DNA from: Escherichia coli
GTDB lineage: Bacteria > Pseudomonadota > Gammaproteobacteria > Enterobacterales > Enterobacteriaceae
Assembly (NCBI RefSeq): GCF_002854065.1
Contig: NZ_CP024147.1
Strand: one strand, 5' to 3'
Length of the DNA: 64,000 nucleotides
The notes beneath the pieces were generated by a model. The model was given only the letters and a program-made list of their open reading frames with translations, ran no database searches and had not been told where the DNA came from. Made by a program: the position numbers and the translations under genes. Below, in pieces: positions 22,438 through 32,988 of this stretch (its first letter is position 1; the number at the start of each line of letters is the position of its first letter).

Positions 22438-23799
22438 TCAGAAGAACAGTGACGGATCGCCCGCCCGTTTGATCAAGCGACCGTTTGCCATAATGCCCAT
22501 GCTTTCCAGCCAGCGTTCAAACTCCGGTGACGGGCGCAGGTTGAGTAACTGACGCACAGTGGCAGTGTCGTGGAAGGCGGTGGTCTGGTAGTTGAGCATG
22601 ATGTCATCGCCCAACGGCATCCCCATGATGTAATTGCAGCCTGCGGTGGCGAGCAGGATCATCAGGTTTTCGTTGAGGTTCTGGTCAGCGTCAGCGTGGT
22701 TGGTGTAACAGCAGTCACAGCCCATAGAGATGCCGCTCAGCTTGCCCATAAAGTGATCTTCTAAGCCCGCACGGATAATCTGGCGGTCGTTGTAGAGATA
22801 CTCCGGCCCAATAAAGCCGACCACGGTGTTGACGATAAACGGATCGTAATGACGCGCCAGCCCATAGTTACGTGCTTCCATCGTCACCTGGTCTGCGCCG
22901 AAGTTAGCGCCAGCGGATAGCGCTGAACCTTGTCCGGTTTCGAAGTAGAGGCAGTTTTCCCCGGCGATACGGTTGAACTCTGCACCCACTGCGCGCGCTT
23001 CGTCGAGCATCGCCAGTTCCACGCCAAACTCTTTCAGCCCTTTTTCACTGCCACAGATACTCTGGAAAATCAGCCCGCCTGGTGCGCCACGACGAATCGC
23101 TTCGATCTGGGTGGTGACGTGCGCCAGTACGCAGCCCTGAGTTGGGATGTTGAATTTGTCGATCACGCCATAGATGGTGTCCAGCACGCGGCTTAAGTTT
23201 TCCACGTCGTCAGTCACCGGGTTAACGCCGATCACCGCATCGCCCACCCCGAAGGAAAGCCCTTCGTAGATTTGCGCGGCGATACTTTGCACGTCGTCAC
23301 GGGTGTCATTTGGCTGCAAACGGGCGCTGAAGGTGCCCGGAATACCGATGGTGGTATTGGCCTTTTTGATTACCGGCATTTTCTTCGCGCCGTAGATCAG
23401 GTCCGCGTTGGAGCAAATCTTCGCTATCGCCGCGACCACTTCCGAGGTCAGCCCTTTGCGGGTAAAGGTAATGTCGTCCACGCTGGTTTCATCGCTCAGC
23501 ACATACTCACGCAGTTCGCTGATGCTCCAGTTTTTAATCTGGTTGTAGGCCGTTTCGTTAACATCGTCCTGAATCAGCCGCGTCACGCAGTCATCTTCAT
23601 AGGCAATCACCGGATTATTGCGGATGTCCGCTACGGTCATTTCCGACAACACCTGCTTTGCCGCCACGCGCTCCTGTGAACTTGCCGCTGCAACGCCTGC
23701 CAGCACATCCCCCGAACGCAGTTCGTTGGCTTTAGCCAGCACCTCTTTTACATCCTTAAACTGATATACATTGCCGAACAATGTGGTCTTTAGTTTCAT
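22438..23799 (-). CDS. eutB: Ethanolamine ammonia-lyase large subunit
   Basis: 453-aa ORF of the EutB family; first eut gene retained in this window. Confidence 0.9.
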   Translation of the reverse strand: MKLKTTLFGNVYQFKDVKEVLAKANELRSGDVLAGVAAASSQERVAAKQVLSEMTVADIRNNPVIAYEDDCVTRLIQDDVNETAYNQIKNWSISELREYVLSDETSVDDITFTRKGLTSEVVAAIAKICSNADLIYGAKKMPVIKKANTTIGIPGTFSARLQPNDTRDDVQSIAAQIYEGLSFGVGDAVIGVNPVTDDVENLSRVLDTIYGVIDKFNIPTQGCVLAHVTTQIEAIRRGAPGGLIFQSICGSEKGLKEFGVELAMLDEARAVGAEFNRIAGENCLYFETGQGSALSAGANFGADQVTMEARNYGLARHYDPFIVNTVVGFIGPEYLYNDRQIIRAGLEDHFMGKLSGISMGCDCCYTNHADADQNLNENLMILLATAGCNYIMGMPLGDDIMLNYQTTAFHDTATVRQLLNLRPSPEFERWLESMGIMANGRLIKRAGDPSLFF

Positions 23800-23986
23800 A
23801 AGTCGTTCCCTCAGGAAGAAGTGATGAGTAACATTTCTTCCAGCATTCGAACAATTCTATTTCATCGTTAGCCCTTGTCCTGTAAGGTAATTGTCTTAAC
23901 ACGCCCGTTATTCATCATGCCGAACGCAACCGAACGCGCCGGATACATGATCGGGTTTATCCAGTCGTTATGTCGAGGTATCCGGT

Positions 23987-25192
23987 TTGAGCAAGACACC
24001 ACTCACAGCAAAGGCCATCGCAGCCGCGCAGCCAAAAGACAAGCCCTATAAACTCACCGATTCACTGACGCCAGGACTGTTTTTGCTGGTGCATCCCAAC
24101 GGCAGCAAATACTGGCGATTCAGGTATTGGTTGAATAAACGAGAGTTTTTGCAGGCCATTGGTGTTTACCCGCTAATCACACTCAAAGAAGCACGCAGAC
24201 GCGCCACAGAGAGCCGATCTCTGATTGCTAATGGAATTAATCCAGTGGAAGAAGCACGCAAGGAAAAAGCCATTGATGCGCTCAACATGGCGGCAGGTTT
24301 TAAGACGGTAGCGGAGGACTGGCTGGCTACCAGGGTCAGCGGGTGGTCAGAGTCCTACACGAAACAGGTTAGATCGGCACTGGAAAAAGATGTTTACCCC
24401 GTGCTGGGGAAGCGGTCAATTGTCGATATAACGGCCCGTGACGTGCTGGAATTGCTTCAGAAGAAAGAGCGTACCGCACCGGAACAAGCCAGGAAGCTAC
24501 GCCAGCGTATCGGGGAGATCTTCAAATTTGCCGTTATCACCGAACTGGTGGCAAGAAATCCGGTTGCAGATCTGAACACAGCACTAAAAGCCCGCCGTCC
24601 GGGCCACAACGCATGGCTGCAAATTAACGAAATTCAGGCGTTCTATGAAGCACTTGAGAGAGCCGGGAGCGTCCAGATTCAGACGGCAATACGTTTGCTC
24701 ATATTGAGCGCTCTAAGGACGGTGGAACTGCGTAAAATGCGCTGGGAATGGGTTAACCTGGAAGACGCGATCATCACCCTACCCGCTGAAGTCATGAAGG
24801 CCCGTCGCCCGCATGTGGTCCCGCTATCACGGCAGGCGGTAGAGCTATTGCAGGACCAGTTTACTCGCACCGGATACAGCGCTTTCGTCTTCCCTGGTCG
24901 ATTCATGGATAAGCCCTTGTCTGCCAGCGCGATACTGAAAGCCCTGGAGCGTATCGGATACAAGTCGATAGCCACAGCACACGGCTGGCGTACAACGTTC
25001 AGCACGACGCTTAACGAGTCCGGCAGGTACTCACCAGACTGGATTGAAATCCAATTGGCCCACGTCCCGAAGGGTGTACGCGGTGTATATAACCAGGCGG
25101 CCTATCTCAAACAGCGCCGTCAAATGCTTCAGGACTACGCCGACGCCATTGATTCAATACTGGCTGGTGAAGGTAATCCGCTGGAACCGTGA
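23987..25192 (+). CDS. intZ: P4-type tyrosine integrase of a prophage remnant (TTG start)
   Basis: 401-aa ORF with N-terminal P4-integrase arm motif (KLTDSLTPGLFLLVHPNGSKYWRFRYW) and C-terminal tyrosine-recombinase core; K-12 has intZ next to eutB. Confidence 0.8.
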   Translation: MSKTPLTAKAIAAAQPKDKPYKLTDSLTPGLFLLVHPNGSKYWRFRYWLNKREFLQAIGVYPLITLKEARRRATESRSLIANGINPVEEARKEKAIDALNMAAGFKTVAEDWLATRVSGWSESYTKQVRSALEKDVYPVLGKRSIVDITARDVLELLQKKERTAPEQARKLRQRIGEIFKFAVITELVARNPVADLNTALKARRPGHNAWLQINEIQAFYEALERAGSVQIQTAIRLLILSALRTVELRKMRWEWVNLEDAIITLPAEVMKARRPHVVPLSRQAVELLQDQFTRTGYSAFVFPGRFMDKPLSASAILKALERIGYKSIATAHGWRTTFSTTLNESGRYSPDWIEIQLAHVPKGVRGVYNQAAYLKQRRQMLQDYADAIDSILAGEGNPLEP

Positions 25193-25198
25193 ACTATA

Positions 25199-25224
25199 AG
25201 GCCGGATTCGTCCGGCTTTTCTTT
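25199..25224 (+). terminator. Rho-independent terminator after the integrase gene
   Basis: Stem gccgga / tccggc with ttcg loop followed by ttttcttt. Confidence 0.5.
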
Positions 25225-25418
25225 CGCTAATTATTCCACTATTCCAATTAAGTGGAATAAATTATTCAATATCAAAAACTTACATCAATATTGCAACAAT
25301 AAAAACGGTGGCTTATGATCAGATCATGATTTTCGGTATGTGAACAGCAAAAACAAGAAGCCCGGAAAGGCGGCAACCAATCCGGGCGATATGGGAAAAG
25401 AGATTAGGAGGTTTCCCC

Positions 25419-26186
25419 ATGCGTAATAGTTTAGCAGTTCGCTTTAGCTTGCAGCAAGGCGAAGAATTATCACAGGAATATCAATTCATCAAATACGAAG
25501 AAGCGCCGGAACAGGTGCAAATAGCTTTTGATGATCAGCACTACGGCAACACTATCCGCTACGACGGTAAAAAATGGTTTCTCAATCCGGTAACAAATGC
25601 CATTCACGTATGTCAAATCATTACGCCAGTAAATAACAGCGCGGATAACGATTCGGCTATTGACGCTGAACTGGTGACAGAACCACTACCGCCACCGCCG
25701 CCAGTACAAGAAAGCGATGTAAAACCCGACGCCATCGATCTGACAGCAGAAGCCAGAGAGCGCAAACAACCGAAGCCGGAACAACCGCAAGCCAAGGATA
25801 ACAAACAGTGGCACGGTAACACGGCGTATCTGAATACGTTTGCTTGTCATCTTCATGAAGTGCTACCACAGGCCATCTATAGCACATGGTGCGACAAACA
25901 AACGGCGGCACACTTCCACCTGCTTTACGCGCTTTGCTACCTGGCAAGCTACGAAAACAAAGATGAAGGTATCGAGCTTGGCGAGGTGTTATATGGTGCT
26001 GAAAAGATCACAAAGGGCGGCGTAGTACCTGGTTTCCATATGGCCCGATCAACGTTCGATATCAAGATTAACGAGCTTGAACAGTGGGGATTAATCAAGG
26101 TAACACGAGGTAAGAAACGTAAGGACGGGCAAGGCAACTTGCCGAACAGTATCAAACTGAACTTTAAGCCGTACAGTTTAAAATAA
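25419..26186 (+). CDS. Hypothetical prophage protein, possibly a winged-helix replication-initiator-like protein
   Basis: 255-aa ORF behind a strong SD (aggagg); proline/acidic linker then a basic C-terminal segment (ELEQWGLIKVTRGKKRKDG) resembling winged-helix initiators; weak inference. Confidence 0.55.
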   Translation: MRNSLAVRFSLQQGEELSQEYQFIKYEEAPEQVQIAFDDQHYGNTIRYDGKKWFLNPVTNAIHVCQIITPVNNSADNDSAIDAELVTEPLPPPPPVQESDVKPDAIDLTAEARERKQPKPEQPQAKDNKQWHGNTAYLNTFACHLHEVLPQAIYSTWCDKQTAAHFHLLYALCYLASYENKDEGIELGEVLYGAEKITKGGVVPGFHMARSTFDIKINELEQWGLIKVTRGKKRKDGQGNLPNSIKLNFKPYSLK

Positions 26187-26194
26187 TCACACTA

Positions 26195-26220
26195 GGCGGG
26201 CAATGTTCCCGCCTTTTCTT
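26195..26220 (+). terminator. Rho-independent terminator after the 255-aa ORF
   Basis: Stem ggcggg / cccgcc with 7-nt loop followed by ttttctt. Confidence 0.5.
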
Positions 26221-26243
26221 TGCCTCAATCCTATAAAATTCAC

Positions 26244-26282
26244 ATCCCGAAAATCGGTATCTGGGTATCCCGAAAATCGGTA
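26244..26282. repeat. Two perfect 16-bp direct repeats ATCCCGAAAATCGGTA with 23-bp period
   Basis: Copies at 26244-26259 and 26267-26282, immediately followed by an AT-rich tract. Confidence 0.7.
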
Positions 26283-27668
26283 AGTAATAATAAGTATTAT
26301 CCTTAAAGGTAAAAACCATATAAGTAAGATCTATCTCTTCAAGAATGTATATATTCACTACGTTCATATATACATGAGAAGTTTCCCTTTCATGCAGTCA
26401 AAACTACATTCATCAGCATCGCTTTCTGCGCTCTCCTTCCCAGCAAGCTGGAAAGGCCCATTCACTCACGCACAACCTGCAAACCAGACCAACATACCAT
26501 CATGGCGATTCGTTCATGGGTAGCGCGGGTATATCTCAAAGGGTGATTTCTTCTTGGTGGACCTTCGGAAGACTTCGAGCAATCGCCAGCTCAAAAGACG
26601 GTCTGGCAGTGATGGTTATCATCGACAGCATTGAGCGCTACCGCGCCAACTTACAGCAGCAGGATAACTACCGAAGGAAAACCCACGCCGAAAGGGATTG
26701 ACTCACTGCAAAGCCAATGGGTTTTATCAGCGTATACAGACCAGACAGGAAACAGCAGCAAAGCAGCGTATAGCCAGGTGCAGACAGTACCATCACACAA
26801 CGCACAGCAGGCTGAGGTGAACACTCAAACAGGTTTATCCCCGCAGCCGACCAACGCAAACCATCCTGACCGTGCCAAATTCGAACGGAATGGTGCCTGT
26901 AACGCGATGAACACATATAACCGCTTACTTGCTTACCTGAAAACTTCACGTCGCCACAGAGCGATTTAGACGCATTATAATTGATGCGATTTCATTAAAT
27001 TTTCACCAGACACCGGAACAACGCCGATTAATCCAGGAATGGATTCATCGACATGCGCCGCTTTCCCCGCAGAACAGTCTCGCCTGAATAGTCTCACCAA
27101 CCAGATTTCAGATTGTCCAATCAGGCACGTCTCATTAAACGACAGAATGCGGCCTACAACGCCATCGCTGCCGATCTCGTTTGAGCAAGGTGCTGAGACT
27201 GAATGACGGACGCCCACTCCTCAGAGCTGAGGAATCGCCACACAGAACGCTGAGATCTGATATTACCGCCGCACCATTCCACGCCAGACGAATCAATCTA
27301 ATCACACCTGAGCAAATGCATTGCCAAAAATTAAGGCCGTCAGAATGCGTTATATTGCGTTTAAACGGCATCTAATTTTAATTAGTTTTGATGTGGTGAT
27401 TGCAGGCAAAAAAAATCCCGCCGGAGAGAGCGGGGAAGTGAAATCAATCGTTGTAGTTATAGATCACATTTTGAGTAAGGGTTACCAGCCCTTGAGTAAT
27501 ATTATCCCTGTATTACGTGAGATGCGCAATTATTTTTTGCTAATTAAAAGTTTTGTAAACATTACAGAATATCCCCTTTCCCTATATGGTAAAAGATGTG
27601 AAACAGGGACATGAGGAATATAATATTAAGTATCAACAGTAATGTTGGTCTTTAATTTCATTCAGGGC

Positions 27669-27710
27669 GCGGTGAGGGTTTTCCCATATTTTTCCTCACC
27701 GCTACTTTTT
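27669..27710 (+). terminator. Terminator/attenuator-like hairpin in the leader of the AlpA-like gene
   Basis: Perfect 9-bp stem gcggtgagg (27669-27677) / cctcaccgc (27694-27702), 16-nt loop, T5 run at 27706-27710. Confidence 0.4.
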
Positions 27711-27721
27711 GAGGTGAGAAC

Positions 27722-27913
27722 ATGAATGATAGCGAATTAATGACGGTGAGCGAGGTAGCCGCTTTATTCGGCGTTACCCGACGCACTATATTCCGCTGGC
27801 TGAACAAGATTAAAGGTTGGCCCGTTCCGGTTACTCCGGTCGGTGCACGAATTAAGTTTATCCGATCTGAGATTTTGGAATTCTATAAAAACAAAGGCGC
27901 TCGCCACCAATGA
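27722..27913 (+). CDS. AlpA/excisionase-family helix-turn-helix prophage regulator
   Basis: 63-aa ORF MNDSELMTVSEVAALFGVTRRTIFRWLNK; HTH typical of prophage AlpA/Xis-type regulators; SD gaggtga 6 nt upstream. Confidence 0.7.
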   Translation: MNDSELMTVSEVAALFGVTRRTIFRWLNKIKGWPVPVTPVGARIKFIRSEILEFYKNKGARHQ

Positions 27914-27989
27914 AAACAGCTACTGAGATTATCAAATAACCTATTGATTTAATAAGCTAGCTACCGCAATTTCTGAAGGAATAGGCAGC

Positions 27990-28316
27990 ATGAAAATCAA
28001 AGCAAACACAATTAAAGAAATAACATCAATCAAAGTAAAAGGAGCAGATGCCATGCATTCATTAGACAGTTATTTTCAGCGCACGACAGCCCCTAAATCA
28101 GCCGCCCAGGAACGCCGTGAGGAATTCCAGGAAAAAGTGATGCGTTCTGCTGATTATATTGCGGACAAGTTCGTGGAAACGGTTCGGCCACTTGTTGATG
28201 AAGTAGCTGATAAACTTCAGTCTGAAATGCCGGAAGACATGGAAGGCACTGCAAAGGCGCGACTCCTTTTTGAATTAAGTCGTCGTTTCGGCGTGTCAAT
28301 AAGCACTTTTAAATAA
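27990..28316 (+). CDS. Hypothetical prophage protein (108 aa; may start at internal Met)
   Basis: ORF in co-directional tight cassette; no recognisable motif. Confidence 0.45.
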   Translation: MKIKANTIKEITSIKVKGADAMHSLDSYFQRTTAPKSAAQERREEFQEKVMRSADYIADKFVETVRPLVDEVADKLQSEMPEDMEGTAKARLLFELSRRFGVSISTFK

Positions 28317-28333
28317 TCGGAGGAGAAAAGACA

Positions 28334-28876
28334 ATGGACGCATTTGATGTACTGACAAACAAAGGCGATGAACTGGTAGCACAGCGTGATAAAACCGCCA
28401 ACGAAGGGGAACGCGCACTGTTAAATAAGCAGATTAAAGCGATCCGTATGGCCCAGTTTAAATTAATCAGCAATGAAGTTATCGAAATAATTAAACCGCA
28501 GATCCCACAAATCGTTGCTGACGCTATTAAAGCCGCCGGACTGGAGAAACGCATTGCCGGGCTGAAAACGAACGCAGAGAAAATGGAGATGCACAAACAG
28601 AGCGGTGCTCCGACTCCGGATGAGTACTTCTCACCGGATGCTGAGTTTATGGCGCAGGTTGAGGAACGTCTGGGTAGCTGTCTCACCGAGGAACAGCGTC
28701 GCTATTTTGATGGAGTGGATAGTTCGGCAGGTATTGACCTGAACTCGTGTTTCGGTCGTGAAATTGAGCATTTTGATGCCGCCCCGTCTATGCCGGAGCC
28801 AGAACCAGAAATGGCCGCCGATCCTGAAGCTGAGCAACGGAAACGCGTATTCAATGCGATAGGGATTCGGTACTGA
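28334..28876 (+). CDS. Hypothetical prophage protein (180 aa) with acidic C-terminal tail
   Basis: Strong SD (ggagga) 7 nt upstream; predicted helical N-terminal half and PEPEPE-containing acidic tail; no recognisable motif. Confidence 0.55.
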   Translation: MDAFDVLTNKGDELVAQRDKTANEGERALLNKQIKAIRMAQFKLISNEVIEIIKPQIPQIVADAIKAAGLEKRIAGLKTNAEKMEMHKQSGAPTPDEYFSPDAEFMAQVEERLGSCLTEEQRRYFDGVDSSAGIDLNSCFGREIEHFDAAPSMPEPEPEMAADPEAEQRKRVFNAIGIRY

Positions 28877-28927
28877 TCGGATAAAAGAAAGCCGGGAATT
28901 ACCCCGGCTGACTTAACAATGTGACCA

Positions 28928-29302
28928 ATGAACAAATCGGACAAGACAAACAGGATAAGCAGTCTCGAAACAATGTTCGGGAACTATATTAGCACAAGTC
29001 CGGAGAAAATCATCATGTTGGCACTACGCATCATGCAGGGCATCGCTAAGACCCTCGCAGAACATGTCTTAGACCTGAAACATTCGCCACTGAGCAAACA
29101 GGCCATGAAGCGCCAAACGCTTCGTCTGTGGGCTGAATATTCGCTTGGAACTATCAATAAAATCATCGACATGAAATCGGGGCCGAGCAACCAGAGCGCG
29201 GAGGAAATGGAGTTCATCAGGCGTTTAATTCTCATTCGCAGAGATATTCATAGCCAGTTACACAGCGTGGGAATCGATATTAATGATGGGACGGGCGATT
29301 AA
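28928..29302 (+). CDS. Hypothetical prophage protein (124 aa)
   Basis: ORF in same cassette; basic, helical; no recognisable motif. Confidence 0.5.
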   Translation: MNKSDKTNRISSLETMFGNYISTSPEKIIMLALRIMQGIAKTLAEHVLDLKHSPLSKQAMKRQTLRLWAEYSLGTINKIIDMKSGPSNQSAEEMEFIRRLILIRRDIHSQLHSVGIDINDGTGD

Positions 29303-29340
29303 TTTTCGGACAAGTACAATGCGCGCGCGAGGAGCTGAAC

Positions 29341-29571
29341 ATGAAGCAAGATATTGCAGACAGGCTGGAGATACTCGAAGGCCAGCGGGCAGAAGCGAAA
29401 CAACTACGTAAGCAGGCCAGAAGAGCGCACAGGAACTACGAAGCAGAATCACTGACCGCTTTCATCAACTTCACAAACCGTTGCATCCAGGAGTGTTACA
29501 GGGAGGATGCAGAAAACTGGCTGGATTCATTGCCAGAACAGACTCTGCATGAACTGAACGGCGACCAGTAA
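29341..29571 (+). CDS. Hypothetical prophage protein (76 aa, coiled-coil-like)
   Basis: SD gaggag 7 nt upstream of ATG; Arg/Glu/Gln-rich helical sequence. Confidence 0.45.
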   Translation: MKQDIADRLEILEGQRAEAKQLRKQARRAHRNYEAESLTAFINFTNRCIQECYREDAENWLDSLPEQTLHELNGDQ

Positions 29572-29859
29572 ATAAATCCAGTACGTTTCCCGCAGTGCGC
29601 ATAACGTACATTATGTGAAAAACGATATGGATGTATATCAGTATTGATTTCATTGAGAAAACTGGGTTTTCAGTGGCACAGACAAAGAAGCATAGCTGAT
29701 ACAGCTTTATAAGCCATTGATTCTATTAAGTGATGTTTTTTGTGATTGGTTGAAGCAAACCAAAACACGATGCCACTGAAGCGTTAATAAACTGTTTCAA
29801 TGTGAAATTATTAGAGTAAAGAACAATTTGGAGGGTCCGCAAACGCGGATAACAATATC

Positions 29860-32040
29860 ATGAGTGGAAATCTCGGGACCATATACTACGAGGTCGATGC
29901 CCGCACTGGGAAACTTCTTATCGCGCAACAGCAGGCGGAAGAGGCGTTCGATCGCATTGAACGAGGAGCGCGGAAGGCTGATAGCGGCGTCAAAAAGTTA
30001 AATACGCAGATGACTAAAACATCAGCCGCAGTCAAAACCAACCTTTCCCCGGCAATCCGTAACGCATCATACCAGATCGCAGACCTTGCCACTCAATTGC
30101 AGATGGGCGGTAATGCGCTTCAGGCGTTCGCTGTGCAGGGTGCGCAGTTATTAGCTGGCTTTGGCACGATGGGCGCGGTAGCTGGCGCGGTGCTGGCTAT
30201 CGCTGGCGCTATGGGTGGAAGCCTGGCACAAGGCGCTGATAGTGCAGCCGGATCGGTTGAGTATCTGGACAAGGCGATCACCAAACTGAACGAGGTCATA
30301 GCTGTAAATGAACAGGGCGTGACGGTGATGAGTGATAGTTACGCCAGACTTTCTAAGGTTAACGCTGAAGTAGCGAAACAGATGCGGAACATGGCTGAAA
30401 TTCAGGCAATTGCAGCACTGCGTGACCTGAAAGAACAGGCAAGCCAGGCACAGGGGGAAATGTCGTCATTCTGGCGCAGCTTGCAGGGTGGTAAAGCTGA
30501 CGCAGCAGCAGCAGCACAGGCACTTGATGATCTTGGAATCACAACCAACGACTACAAAGAGGCGATAGCCATACTGAACGCCAATCAGCCGGATACACAG
30601 GCGCAAATGGCAACGCTAGCCAAATCCGTGATGTATGTTGGAGAGCAATATGATCTGACCAACCAGCAAGCATACGAATTTATACGCGCACTAAATAAGG
30701 CCGCGACAACGAAAACGCCGGAAGCCATGCAGGAGCTATCTGGCTTCATGCAGGTTTTGCTTCAGGATACCGAAAACGGTAACGAGGCATTCCGTGAACT
30801 GGCTATCAAATTCGTCGATGCACAAACCAAAGGCGCAATGTTGGAGGACCAACTAAACCGACTGAAAGGCGCTATTAGTGACGCAGCCACAGAAGCCAGA
30901 AACGCAAACTTTACCACTATGCTCAACACCGTCGCCGCACGCCTGGCAACCATTGAGCAAGGTTGGGAGGCAGGCGTTAGGATGCAGATGAAAGCCCAGG
31001 GCTACACTGAAGAGCAGATCGATGAATATGTGAACATGGAAACGGCGTACCGTGATGCAAAAGCCGCTTTGGACGAGAAGAACAAGGCCGACCGTGAAGC
31101 TATTGCGCTATCCAAACGCCAGGCCGCAGAAGCAGCCCGCAAGGCAAAACAGGAAGAAGCTGAAGCACAACGCAAGGCCAAACAGTTAGCCGCGCAGAAG
31201 GAGCAGGCAGGACGCTTTACGCAGCAAGTAATGACGGAATACCTGACGACCGTAGATCCGGCAACAGGCAAGGCGTTTAACCCTGCCGCACAAGTAGAAA
31301 TGCAGGAGCAGCAGAAGAAAGCGGCGCTGGATAAATACAGACAGTTGGGCGTCCTGGATGAACAGCAGTACCAGAACACGCTAACCGCCATCCAGAAAAC
31401 CGCGTCAATGCGCCGCCAGCAAATCATCAAAGACGAGGCCGACACGTTATTCAACAATCAGCAACAGTTGATCGGCACATTTGGCGATTTCTTCGGTGAA
31501 CTGTCTGGAGTCATAGCAGACGGTGCAGGTGAGCAAAACGCGGCATATCAAGCGCTATTTGCTGTGCAGAAGGGTTTTGTATTGGCATCAGCAGCTTTAA
31601 GCCTTCAGAAAGCGCTTGCTGAGGCAAACGCCTTGCCTTTCCCGGCTAATCTTCCGGCCTATGCGCAAGCTATGTCAGCAGGTACGCAGATCATTTCAGC
31701 TATTCGTGGAATAGCTTTCGGTGGCGGACGCTACAACGGCGGCGCGGTTGGTGCTGGCAACCTGTACCGCGTGGGTGAACACGGTAAGCCTGAGATATTC
31801 AAGGCGAACAATGGCAGCCAGTACATGATCCCAGGTGATAACGGTCGCGTGATAAGTAATCGTGACATTGGCGGCGGTGGCGGCGTAACAATCAACAGCC
31901 CGATCACCATTAACACTACGAATGGCTTCAGTGATGAAGACTCAAGGCGTCTTGAGGAAGCGATGAAGCGCGTAGCTATGGGCGTTTGCAGGCAGGAGTC
32001 AACCAGACCGGGAGGAATGTTAGCCCCGCGCCGTCGTTAA
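29860..32040 (+). CDS. Phage tail tape-measure-like protein
   Basis: 726-aa Ala/Gln-rich mostly helical ORF with glycine-rich hydrophobic N-terminal segment, long coiled-coil region (AEAARKAKQEEAEAQRKAKQLAAQKEQ) and C-terminal Gly-rich motif GGGRYNGGAVGAGNLYRVGEHG resembling the lambda gpH C-terminus as recalled. Confidence 0.65.
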   Translation: MSGNLGTIYYEVDARTGKLLIAQQQAEEAFDRIERGARKADSGVKKLNTQMTKTSAAVKTNLSPAIRNASYQIADLATQLQMGGNALQAFAVQGAQLLAGFGTMGAVAGAVLAIAGAMGGSLAQGADSAAGSVEYLDKAITKLNEVIAVNEQGVTVMSDSYARLSKVNAEVAKQMRNMAEIQAIAALRDLKEQASQAQGEMSSFWRSLQGGKADAAAAAQALDDLGITTNDYKEAIAILNANQPDTQAQMATLAKSVMYVGEQYDLTNQQAYEFIRALNKAATTKTPEAMQELSGFMQVLLQDTENGNEAFRELAIKFVDAQTKGAMLEDQLNRLKGAISDAATEARNANFTTMLNTVAARLATIEQGWEAGVRMQMKAQGYTEEQIDEYVNMETAYRDAKAALDEKNKADREAIALSKRQAAEAARKAKQEEAEAQRKAKQLAAQKEQAGRFTQQVMTEYLTTVDPATGKAFNPAAQVEMQEQQKKAALDKYRQLGVLDEQQYQNTLTAIQKTASMRRQQIIKDEADTLFNNQQQLIGTFGDFFGELSGVIADGAGEQNAAYQALFAVQKGFVLASAALSLQKALAEANALPFPANLPAYAQAMSAGTQIISAIRGIAFGGGRYNGGAVGAGNLYRVGEHGKPEIFKANNGSQYMIPGDNGRVISNRDIGGGGGVTINSPITINTTNGFSDEDSRRLEEAMKRVAMGVCRQESTRPGGMLAPRRR

Positions 32041-32163
32041 CCAAATCCCACGCCAGGGGAACAGACTGGCGGACCTTCAAAGACGGTCGCACACCGTGTT
32101 TGACATAATTTATTGTTTTTTGCTTGCTCTTATTATTGCAGCCGTTAGGGTAATGACTCCAAC

Positions 32164-32667
32164 TTATTGATAGTGTTTTATGTTCAGATAATGCCCGATG
32201 ACTTTGTCATGCAGCTCCACCGATTTTGAGAACGACAGCGACTTCCGTCCCAGCCGTGCCAGGTGCTGCCTCAGATTCAGGTTATGCCGCTCAATTCGCT
32301 GCGTATATCGCTTGCTGATTACGTGCAGCTTTCCCTTCAGGCGGGATTCATACAGCGGCCAGCCATCCGTCATCCATATCACCACGTCAAAGGGTGACAG
32401 CAGGCTCATAAGACGCCCCAGCGTCGCCATAGTGCGTTCACCGAATACGTGCGCAACAACCGTCTTCCGGAGACTGTCATACGCGTAAAACAGCCAGCGC
32501 TGGCGCGATTTAGCCCCGACGTATCCCCACTGTTCGTCCATTTCCGCGCAGACGATGACGTCACTGCCCGGCTGTATGCGCGAGGTTACCGACTGCGGCC
32601 TGAGTTTTTTAAATGGCGGAAAATCGTGTTGAGGCCAACGCCCATAATGCGGGCGGTTGCCCGGCAT
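32164..32667 (-). CDS. insB: IS1 InsB reading frame (expressed as InsAB transposase by -1 frameshift)
   Basis: 167-aa ORF overlapping the insA 3-prime end in the -1 frame, classic IS1 organisation. Confidence 0.85.
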
Positions 32668-32861
32668 CCAACGCCATTCATGGCCATATCAATGATTTTC
32701 TGGTGCGTACCGGGTTGAGAAGCGGTGTAAGTGAACTGCAGTTGCCATGTTTTACGGCAGTGAGAGCAGAGATAGCGCTGATGTCCGGCAGTGCTTTTGC
32801 CGTTACGCACCACCCCGTCAGTAGCTGAACAGGAGGGACAGCTGATAGAAACAGAAGCCAC
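32586..32861 (-). CDS. insA: IS1 InsA protein
   Basis: 91-aa [46 protein letters not shown] with zinc-finger cysteines. Confidence 0.9.
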
Positions 32862-32988
32862 TGGAGCACCTCAAAAACACCATCATACACTAAATCAGTA
32901 AGTTGGCAGCATCACCAGCTTTACTAATATATTGCAGCTGGACCGCTTACCCTGAATATTCAGGGTAAGCGTGAGAGTTAAAAAAGAA

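Follow-up and report, generated by a model that had tools for sequence, protein, structure and literature searches.

A CPZ-55-type island beside eutB in Escherichia coli, truncated by IS1 and probably belonging to a compact satellite-like element family

CPZ-55 is one of the nine 'cryptic prophages' that were removed in much-used derivatives of Escherichia coli K-12. In K-12 MG1655 it is annotated as 'cryptic prophage CPZ-55', spans 6,790 bp at the eut locus and comprises intZ and yffL-yffS (b2442-b2450). Among phage satellites, the known systems remodel capsids or packaging, and the gene content of P4 includes neither a tail tape-measure protein (TMP) gene nor a TerS-like gene. Here, we analyzed a 64,000-nt stretch of an E. 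coli chromosome (contig NZ_CP024147.1 of assembly GCF_002854065.1, hereafter the window), which carries an island at the same site as CPZ-55, in the order ptsHI … eutR, eutKLCB, island, maeB, tal, tkt … hyf. The island extends from the attL core to IS1 (23811-32148) and encodes a P4-type integrase, an AlpA-like regulator and a full-length TMP homologue. Its identity as a CPZ-55-type island that lost its right end through an IS1-associated deletion is practically certain. Probably, although with considerably less confidence, the island is best explained overall as an immobilised representative of a compact satellite-like family that occurs both integrated and as plasmids. Every item listed in the first-pass annotation of this region was found where it had been placed, and several of its interpretations changed, as described below.

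The first gene of the island, intZ (23987-25192, plus strand), encodes a tyrosine integrase of 401 aa with the Pfam architecture Arm-DNA-bind_3, Phage_int_M and Phage_integrase, which is that of P4-type enzymes. The protein also matches PHROG 1 (1e-65) and PRK09692. The TTG codon is the sole start after an in-frame TGA, with no ATG in between; it is preceded by a GAGG Shine-Dalgarno sequence and is common to six other intZ alleles, that of K-12 among them. The three-domain architecture and the conserved TTG support the TTG-initiated P4-family integrase that had been proposed, and the open reading frame (ORF) lies 188 bp from eutB (22438-23799, minus strand), the left neighbour of the island, in agreement with the earlier estimate of about 190 bp. 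The window IntZ is 92.8% identical to K-12 IntZ at the amino acid level, and dN/dS of intZ is 0.09. The gene was detected in 437 of 5,426 complete E. coli genomes, always chromosomal and as a single copy, and an empty eutB-eutA junction was found in 4,965 of them. The share of intZ-positive genomes is the same as the frequency of 8% reported earlier (PMC6379469).

The island had been taken to start at 23800 and to be anchored at eutB, which proved incorrect on both counts. The true left end is the 8-bp attL core TCAGGAAG (23811-23818), located 11 bp outside the eutB start codon, and its context CATAAGTCGTTCCC-TCAGGAAG in the window is identical to that in K-12 and five other islands. The search for att direct repeats in related genomes that had been recommended was successful: intact relatives carry TCAGGAAG at both ends, the second copy being attR at the eutA stop codon. 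Specifically, in K-12 and four further islands, one copy of the 8 bp adjoins the eutB start and another lies at the eutA stop codon. The target of IntZ is thus the 3' end of eutA, and the core overlaps the eutA stop codon. An 8-bp duplication at the eut site has been published (PMC6379469) and matches the TCAGGAAG core found here. The absence of a nearby tRNA gene, which had seemed at odds with a P4-type integrase, extends to the whole 64 kb (ARAGORN) and is explained by the target, because the IntZ lineage uses the 3' end of a protein-coding gene, eutA.

The island was described as stopping at IS1 without a recognisable attR, and comparison with relatives explains why. The IS1 copy (IS1B-like, 768 bp; 32149-32916, minus strand) has both inverted repeats intact and the features expected of IS1, namely insA/insB frames, the 768-bp length and the terminal inverted repeats. 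No 9-bp target duplication surrounds it, and its flanks AGCCGTTAG and AGCTTTACT differ. The right deletion junction (32917-32988) lies 71 bp downstream of the maeB stop codon, equivalent to a point 221 bp upstream of eutS in K-12. Between 26706 and 32148, the window agrees at 99.5% with strain 13TMH22, which continues beyond the IS1 point for 2.58 kb with a YffQ-like gene, a gene at the YffR position and a YffS gene, followed by attR and eutA. Approximately 13.1 kb are therefore missing from the window. The lost DNA comprises the terminal ~2.6 kb of the island, with attR and the homologues of YffQ, YffR and YffS, together with twelve eut genes (eutA, H, G, J, E, N, M, D, T, Q, P and S) and the greater part of the eut promoter region; eutBCLK and eutR are kept as intact ORFs.

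Strains CUWW06 and 100416 share an IS1-maeB junction identical to that of the window. The left junction of CUWW06 corresponds to window position 31951, where the TMP gene is truncated, and that of strain 100416 to position 28446, within the gene for a 180-aa protein. Three related strains (that of the window and those represented by L001 and L047) thus show nested left junctions at 32148, 31951 and 28446 and one shared IS1-maeB junction. IS1 promotes adjacent deletions, and nested deletions are their expected product. The intact 768-bp element, the missing target duplication and the combination of one fixed with nested variable junctions are all shared with such events, and nothing is unusual here; most of the eut operon was simply removed along with the right arm of the island. 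attR is absent from the window because the IS1-adjacent deletion took it. With the right arm and attR lost, the window copy can no longer excise. It is immobilised and eroding from the right, and eutBCLK are cut off from their promoter. Because the eut promoter and eutA-eutS are gone, the strain should not grow on ethanolamine. The intergenic region of the IS1 junction also differs in strain NRZ105822, which carries two glycosyltransferase-type genes between eutS and maeB (L046, 30261-32247).

Intact relatives of the island are small. Five islands measured 6,790-11,616 bp from core to core and two more about 12.7-12.8 kb by annotation, so that most intact relatives cover 9.9-12.8 kb and the K-12 copy 6.8 kb. 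They are mosaic and follow one common architecture: int, a variable region, a non-coding stretch, an AlpA-like helix-turn-helix (HTH) gene with or without an HNH nuclease gene, three small core proteins, a TerS-like protein (YffO; PHROG 1482) with YffP, the TMP, and YffQ/YffR/YffS. The variable region beside int encodes a YffL-type protein, a YafO toxin-antitoxin pair or AIPR. The TerS-like proteins match both PHROG 1482 and Pfam Sf6_terminase, and an HNH endonuclease also occurs in members. This combination of satellite-like with tailed-phage-like genes agrees with the composite island suggested at first reading. The yff content of the window itself is limited to homologues of YffL (27% identity) and YffM (35%), its right arm being deleted. 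Neither head, large terminase, portal, capsid, tail tube and lysis genes nor any tail gene other than that for the TMP were found in the window, as the first reading had it, and capsid, portal, large terminase and lysis genes were likewise missing from all 13 related islands read. In the right arms of three islands (L004, L008 and L010), the TMP gene and everything to its right are replaced by a frameshifted pyridoxal phosphate-dependent decarboxylase gene, a gadC-like antiporter gene and a glutamate racemase gene, followed by IS1; these genes resemble acid-resistance cargo.

The gene first described as tape-measure-like (29860-32040, plus strand) encodes a true TMP homologue of 726 aa at full length. 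It matches PHROG 1538 at 7e-103 (residues 1-455) and PHROG 1107 at 7e-58 (residues 418-725), Pfam TMP_2 at 0.007 only, and is 32-36% identical (tblastn) to the siphovirus TMPs of Cronobacter phage ENT47670, Citrobacter phage K1M and Salmonella phage Seszw. The three phage genes sit in ordinary tail modules. The window gene is not in a tail-gene cluster, and its neighbours are small ORFs without matches to the neighbours of phage TMP genes. TMP alleles showed dN/dS of 0.07-0.17 at dS of 0.41-0.61. At least 120 clusters of E. coli TMPs were obtained at 90% identity, and all 120 listed are nearly full length (689-729 aa, mostly 725-729 aa). Moreover, island TMP alleles with identities down to 37% fill the same slot. 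The AlpA-to-TMP segment gave 255 megablast matches in the 5,426 genomes, all of them chromosomal and every one inspected at eut. An apparent prophage TMP with 78% nucleotide identity (H94; annotated as 'phage tail length tape measure family protein') turned out to belong to another eut island.

The conventional reading of such a locus is a cryptic prophage, that is, the eroded remnant of a full-size temperate siphovirus at eutA whose genes are decaying, functionless leftovers. The TMP, TerS-like, HNH and HK97-gp10-like genes are indeed phage genes, the K-12 element carries this annotation and has lost its TMP gene, several copies contain IS elements and foreign cargo, the window copy is eroded by IS1, and excision is very rare. 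Nevertheless, none of the 13 islands read exceeds 12.8 kb, no full prophage with a closely related TMP occurs in the 5,426 genomes, and strong purifying selection with preserved ORF length is not what a decaying remnant would show. Additionally, the nearest phage relatives of the TerS-like protein are from Ralstonia, Bordetella and Pseudomonas phages, unlike those of the TMP; because the two affinities differ, the gene set did not arise simply by deletion from a single known type of phage. We regard the cryptic prophage explanation as improbable. The case that would have favoured it, a related genome with these genes in a complete conventional prophage, was not found; intact relatives have attL and attR but span 6.8-12.8 kb.

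Further evidence came from extrachromosomal relatives, as several TMP clusters derived from contigs of about 10-11 kb. Two of these (L012 and L013, from Logan assemblies) are 10,321 bp long, have 30-bp terminal overlaps and are circular permutations with 99.97% identity. L014, from an ENA metagenome, is permuted too, and L012-L014 represent one 10.29-kb molecule recovered at 98-99.97% identity from independent samples. L015, from an NCBI assembly, is 10,266 bp long with a 127-bp terminal overlap. None of the four encodes IntZ. Three of them encode a 529-aa DUF5906 protein that matches PHROG 1156 'DNA primase' at 6e-29, and genes for a serine recombinase and a 196-aa HTH_36 protein are found on the fourth. 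Gene-family clustering placed homologues in the same order in islands and plasmids. On the circular elements, identity to the island homologue is 36% for the AlpA-like HTH protein, 46% for the 108-aa protein, 33% for the 180-aa protein, about 40% for the 95-aa protein, 45% for the TerS-like protein and 40% for the YffP-like protein; the YffS-like match is weak (20-23%), and the TMP is 90% identical to the window protein at the amino acid level.

Complete plasmids of the family also exist. The E. coli plasmids pRHB34-C15_2 (9,003 bp) and pRHB04-C06_4 (8,873 bp) in PLSDB (L016 and L017; CP057168.1 and CP058022.1) are typed non-mobilizable and encode the HTH, HNH, core and TerS-like proteins, with YffP on pRHB34-C15_2 and no TMP gene. 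Meanwhile, two complete genomes, Res13-Lact-PEB14-36 and Res13-Lact-EB12-05, contain an 8,009-bp family plasmid (NZ_CP062859.1 and NZ_CP062904.1) together with a chromosomal eut island (NZ_CP062863.1 and NZ_CP062908.1). Since the same module is found on circles of 8-10.3 kb and is under purifying selection, small size is the family's normal state. A syntenic module on autonomous circles without IntZ is also difficult to reconcile with a decaying prophage. Only the window copy is degraded, and this was done by IS1; for the family, islands of at most 12.8 kb, purifying selection on the TMP and plasmid forms speak against the earlier term 'degraded prophage'. As judged from the sequences, the islands very probably belong to a compact and functional family of 7-13 kb elements and are not prophage debris.

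The plasmids raise another possibility, namely a family of small cryptic plasmids that integrate occasionally, do not depend on phages and have captured the TMP-like and TerS-like genes as passengers. Complete plasmids typed non-mobilizable and interchangeable maintenance modules (IntZ, serine recombinase, DUF5906 helicase and HTH_36 protein) fit such a family. However, the supposed passengers are the most conserved and syntenic part, the TMP is strongly selected in both forms, and the HNH and TerS-like genes are retained even on plasmids without the TMP gene. This explanation is thus very unlikely, even less probable than a cryptic prophage.

The ORF-poor stretch pointed out at first reading (26187-27721; 1.5 kb without convincing ORFs) contains a conserved part of the family. 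Related sequence was found in 435 of the 5,426 genomes and is mostly annotated 'none'. Its core (~27290-27540) is 80-87% identical at the nucleotide level between islands and plasmids, above the conservation of the flanking proteins. Within it lies a small RNA (sRNA) candidate of ~87 nt (27408-27494, minus strand) with a 5' hairpin, the sequence AUAACUACAACGAU and a Rho-independent terminator, downstream of a promoter-like TTGCGC-17 nt-GATAAT (27495-27536, minus strand) whose GATAAT box is nearly invariant in the family. The 5' hairpin varies in sequence and keeps its pairing (AAGGG/CCCUU, GAGGAU/AUCCUC and AAGGAUU/AAUCCUU), AUAACUACAACGAU is invariant and single-stranded, and the terminator shows one CG-to-AU compensatory change. 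These folds are single-sequence predictions; RNAalifold on a MAFFT alignment gave the terminator only, with indels misaligning the 5' hairpin. An exact-pattern scan identified 25 metagenome loci, of which most of those with enough flank carry IntZ or eut genes and one a serine recombinase instead. No locus was found in IMG/VR or in species-representative genomes. An Rfam scan (E ≤ 1) gave no family above threshold, and a sub-threshold GcvB-like match ended at the same terminator. In the near-identical CUWW06, PGAP annotated an 89-aa ORF (27345-27614, plus strand) overlapping the sRNA candidate; given a 4-nt indel in this region among family members, the ORF is probably not a real gene. We infer that the ~87-nt RNA opposes the leader of the AlpA operon and may act as an immunity or copy-control RNA. 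A conserved RNA-like element common to islands and plasmids is likewise not expected of prophage leftovers.

The rightward operon begins with the AlpA-like, excisionase-type HTH gene (63 aa; 27722-27913, plus strand). Matches to PHROG 66 (1.5e-8), TIGR01764 and Pfam HTH_17 (4e-8) confirm the AlpA-like regulator. It is followed by core small protein 1 (108 aa; 27990-28316, plus strand), with 94% identity to its counterpart in L005 and 46% to that of the circular element. Because its relatives have 87-88 aa, translation may in fact begin at an internal ATG (28053). Core small protein 2 (180 aa; 28334-28876, plus strand) has close relatives in E. coli, Shigella and one partial Salmonella record. 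Members of its family have N-terminal helices and an acidic C-terminal half with repeated aromatic motifs (DDFTRQYFDG, EYF and DYF), reminiscent of short linear binding motifs. Core small protein 3 (95 aa; 29015-29302, plus strand) belongs to the YffM family, with 35% identity to YffM, and was modelled by AlphaFold2 as a confident three-helix bundle (mean predicted local distance difference test score, pLDDT, 89.8) with generic helical-bundle fold matches only. The next ORF (76 aa; 29341-29571, plus strand) has no relatives among the loci compared, and its slot holds the TerS-like (YffO) and YffP genes in other family members.

These four small ORFs, described as unknown at first reading, matched nothing in any library searched (PHROGs, NCBIfam and PADLOC), and PADLOC reported no defence family among the window ORFs beyond a weak HTH match. 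We considered whether they might be a disguised tail module, with a major tail protein and G/GT chaperones, and rejected it: there were no PHROG matches and no similarity to the genes flanking the TMP genes of ENT47670 and K1M, there is no overlap between the 95-aa and 76-aa ORFs, and in other members the TerS-like gene is located there. The intergenic stretch upstream of the TMP gene (29594-29859) is a candidate cis element. It is ~90% conserved between variants that differ in the upstream gene and in the TMP allele (L005 and L009) and might serve as a promoter, packaging site or recombination linker. Directly upstream of the TMP gene, L046 (13880-14320) encodes an 'HK97 gp10 family phage protein'; with it, the family includes a second tail-related gene.

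The region after intZ had been described as a replication-like module. It contains the gene for a YffL-family protein of 255 aa (25419-26186, plus strand; 27% identity to YffL), whose AlphaFold2 model (mean pLDDT 63) comprises a small beta domain at the N terminus and a winged helix at the C terminus, joined by a disordered linker. The fold search gave no significant match for it; neither did PHROG, NCBIfam, PADLOC and Pfam give a direct match, and the PDB sequence search was non-significant. The family is very small, since 1.84 billion proteins yielded only 27 representative clusters, and 8 of 14 members match Pfam HTH_36. YffL itself showed weak matches to DnaD-like and replication-initiator PHROGs. 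Additionally, hhalign linked the winged helix to the 196-aa HTH_36 protein of L015 with 92.5% probability, and this protein matches PHROG 270 'replication initiation protein' at 7e-6 and has a homologue on plasmid L016. When homologues of the 180-aa and 255-aa proteins were sought in deep searches, nearly only E. coli and Shigella sequences were recovered, with no transferable function. A terminator hairpin (26194-26214) lies directly 3' of the 255-aa gene, followed by perfect 16-nt direct repeats ATCCCGAAAATCGGTA (26244-26259 and 26267-26282; 23 bp apart) and an AT-rich stretch of 100 bp beyond them (region 26194-26380). The arrangement of terminator, repeats and AT-rich 100 bp is a candidate iteron- or origin-like site, and the 255-aa protein is a plausible candidate replication initiator or regulator. 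A proven Rep was rejected, given the weak evidence for the winged helix, the missing direct Pfam match and the non-significant PDB sequence and fold searches. Thus, the winged helix, the HTH_36 matches of relatives and the link to L015 agree with the replication-like module, and the weak support and missing direct matches leave it provisional.

Taken together, size and layout resembling P4-like satellites as well as phage-inducible chromosomal islands (PICIs), an AlpA-type regulator and packaging-type genes (TerS-like and HNH) suggest a satellite or hitch-hiker, as do tail genes without the means of building a virion and plasmids without conjugation functions. That the family is a helper-dependent phage satellite is a proposal with slightly less than even chances. 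More tentatively, it could be an undescribed satellite class with two lifestyles (IntZ at eutA or a plasmid of 8-10 kb) and its own TMP, joined in some members by a gp10-like tail protein, a TerS-like protein and an HNH nuclease; it would be controlled by an sRNA that is specific to the family and antisense in orientation, and would re-equip or sabotage the tail, not the capsid, of its helper. Under the satellite model, the sRNA would keep the rightward operon silent until a helper siphovirus or stress switches the AlpA-like gene on. IntZ and the AlpA-like protein would then excise the element, and the winged-helix protein and the adjacent repeats would replicate it. Where present, the TerS-like and HNH proteins might steer element DNA into helper capsids, and the element TMP might be incorporated into helper tails or compete for them. 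Such a TMP could suit the injection needs of a short genome, evade TMP-acting exclusion systems or poison helper tail assembly. TMP-acting exclusion is known for HK97, as cited in PMC11364771.

The same genes could instead serve in defence or competition, with the TMP, gp10-like and TerS-like proteins acting as decoys that poison siphovirus tail assembly or packaging and not for transfer of the island itself. In relatives, the region beside int encodes a YafO toxin-antitoxin pair, AIPR (an abortive-infection protein) and HNH proteins, and tail-assembly interference by mobile elements is established (Tai, PMC11364771). A full-length TMP without the remaining tail module would also suit a dominant-negative role. 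Besides Tai, Tab is reportedly another tail-assembly interference system encoded by a mobile element. However, the PADLOC result for the window ORFs offers no support, the TerS-like and HNH pair is more typical of packaging redirection, and the spread of non-mobilizable plasmid forms would be left unexplained. A defence island is accordingly unlikely as a separate explanation, if somewhat less so than a cryptic prophage; it is also compatible with the satellite model, as satellites commonly interfere with their helpers.

Several points weigh against the satellite reading, which we nevertheless prefer. K-12 CPZ-55 excises in fewer than 1 per 100,000 cells (PMC3105296) and was inactive in mobilome sequencing under stress (10.1101/2024.07.17.603846). 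The window copy lacks the TerS-like, YffP and HNH genes, so that the packaging step rests on relatives, and its repeat pair at 26244-26282 has two copies only. The sample of the family is 13 islands read out of 437 intZ-positive genomes, and the apparent circularity of L012-L015 rests on assembly overlaps and permutation. Moreover, the circular element was unmatched among 50,697 phage records, and the 180-aa protein and the non-coding core were not found in IMG/VR viral contigs. Library and fold searches yielded no function for the three core small proteins and the winged-helix protein.

We found no paper in which satellites or plasmids are linked to CPZ-55, the yff genes or the eutA/eutB site. 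If the family is a living satellite or plasmid lineage, results ascribed to 'prophage fossils' need re-examination. A satellite with a selected TMP gene would make tail length, tail assembly or DNA injection a new battleground and, if true, would point to a way in which small plasmids typed 'non-mobilizable' could be transferred. For experiments, the plasmid forms and the sRNA candidate offer direct handles.

Compared with the described systems, the island is closest to CPZ-55 of K-12. Both share the integration site, the TCAGGAAG core, IntZ at 93% identity and its TTG start, and the 255-aa and 95-aa proteins of the window are homologous to YffL and YffM. Homologues of YffO, YffP, YffQ and YffS occur in close relatives of the window island and not in the window. 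Conversely, genes for the AlpA-like protein and the TMP are missing from the K-12 copy, as is the sRNA core, whereas the window copy is without the right arm and attR owing to IS1, and the variable regions differ.

With P4, the family shares the P4-type integrase architecture, a small HTH protein of the AlpA/Vis type, a size of ~10 kb, integrated and plasmid lifestyles, and accessory or defence genes beside int. The DUF5906 helicase of plasmid members matches phage 'DNA primase' families (PHROG 1156), and a small RNA candidate lies in the control region. However, the window has no matches to psu, delta, sid, epsilon, cnr or alpha (PHROG, NCBIfam and Pfam) and no Rfam match to the C4/CI RNA, with an unrelated sRNA candidate instead; its target is the 3' end of a protein-coding gene and not a tRNA; and, unlike P4, the family carries a siphovirus-type TMP and a TerS-like gene.

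Gram-negative PICIs such as EcCICFT073 (PICI features according to PMC6092414) resemble the family in the position of int at the left end, a unidirectional operon that begins with an AlpA-type regulator gene, a size of 10-13 kb and the packaging-type genes (TerS-like and HNH) of members. Unlike them, integrated family forms lack pri-rep, the window having only the winged-helix protein and two 16-nt repeats. Classical PICIs are without virion genes, whereas the island has a full-length TMP homologue, and the family has plasmid forms and no known helper. As described in 10.1101/2022.09.08.507074, cf-PICIs carry capsid genes and rely on helper tails. Since the island departs in defining features from P4-like satellites and classical PICIs, we provisionally file the family as a variant of the satellite or integrative-element kind; the element in the window is a member of the known CPZ-55 island, and its truncation by IS1 is ordinary.

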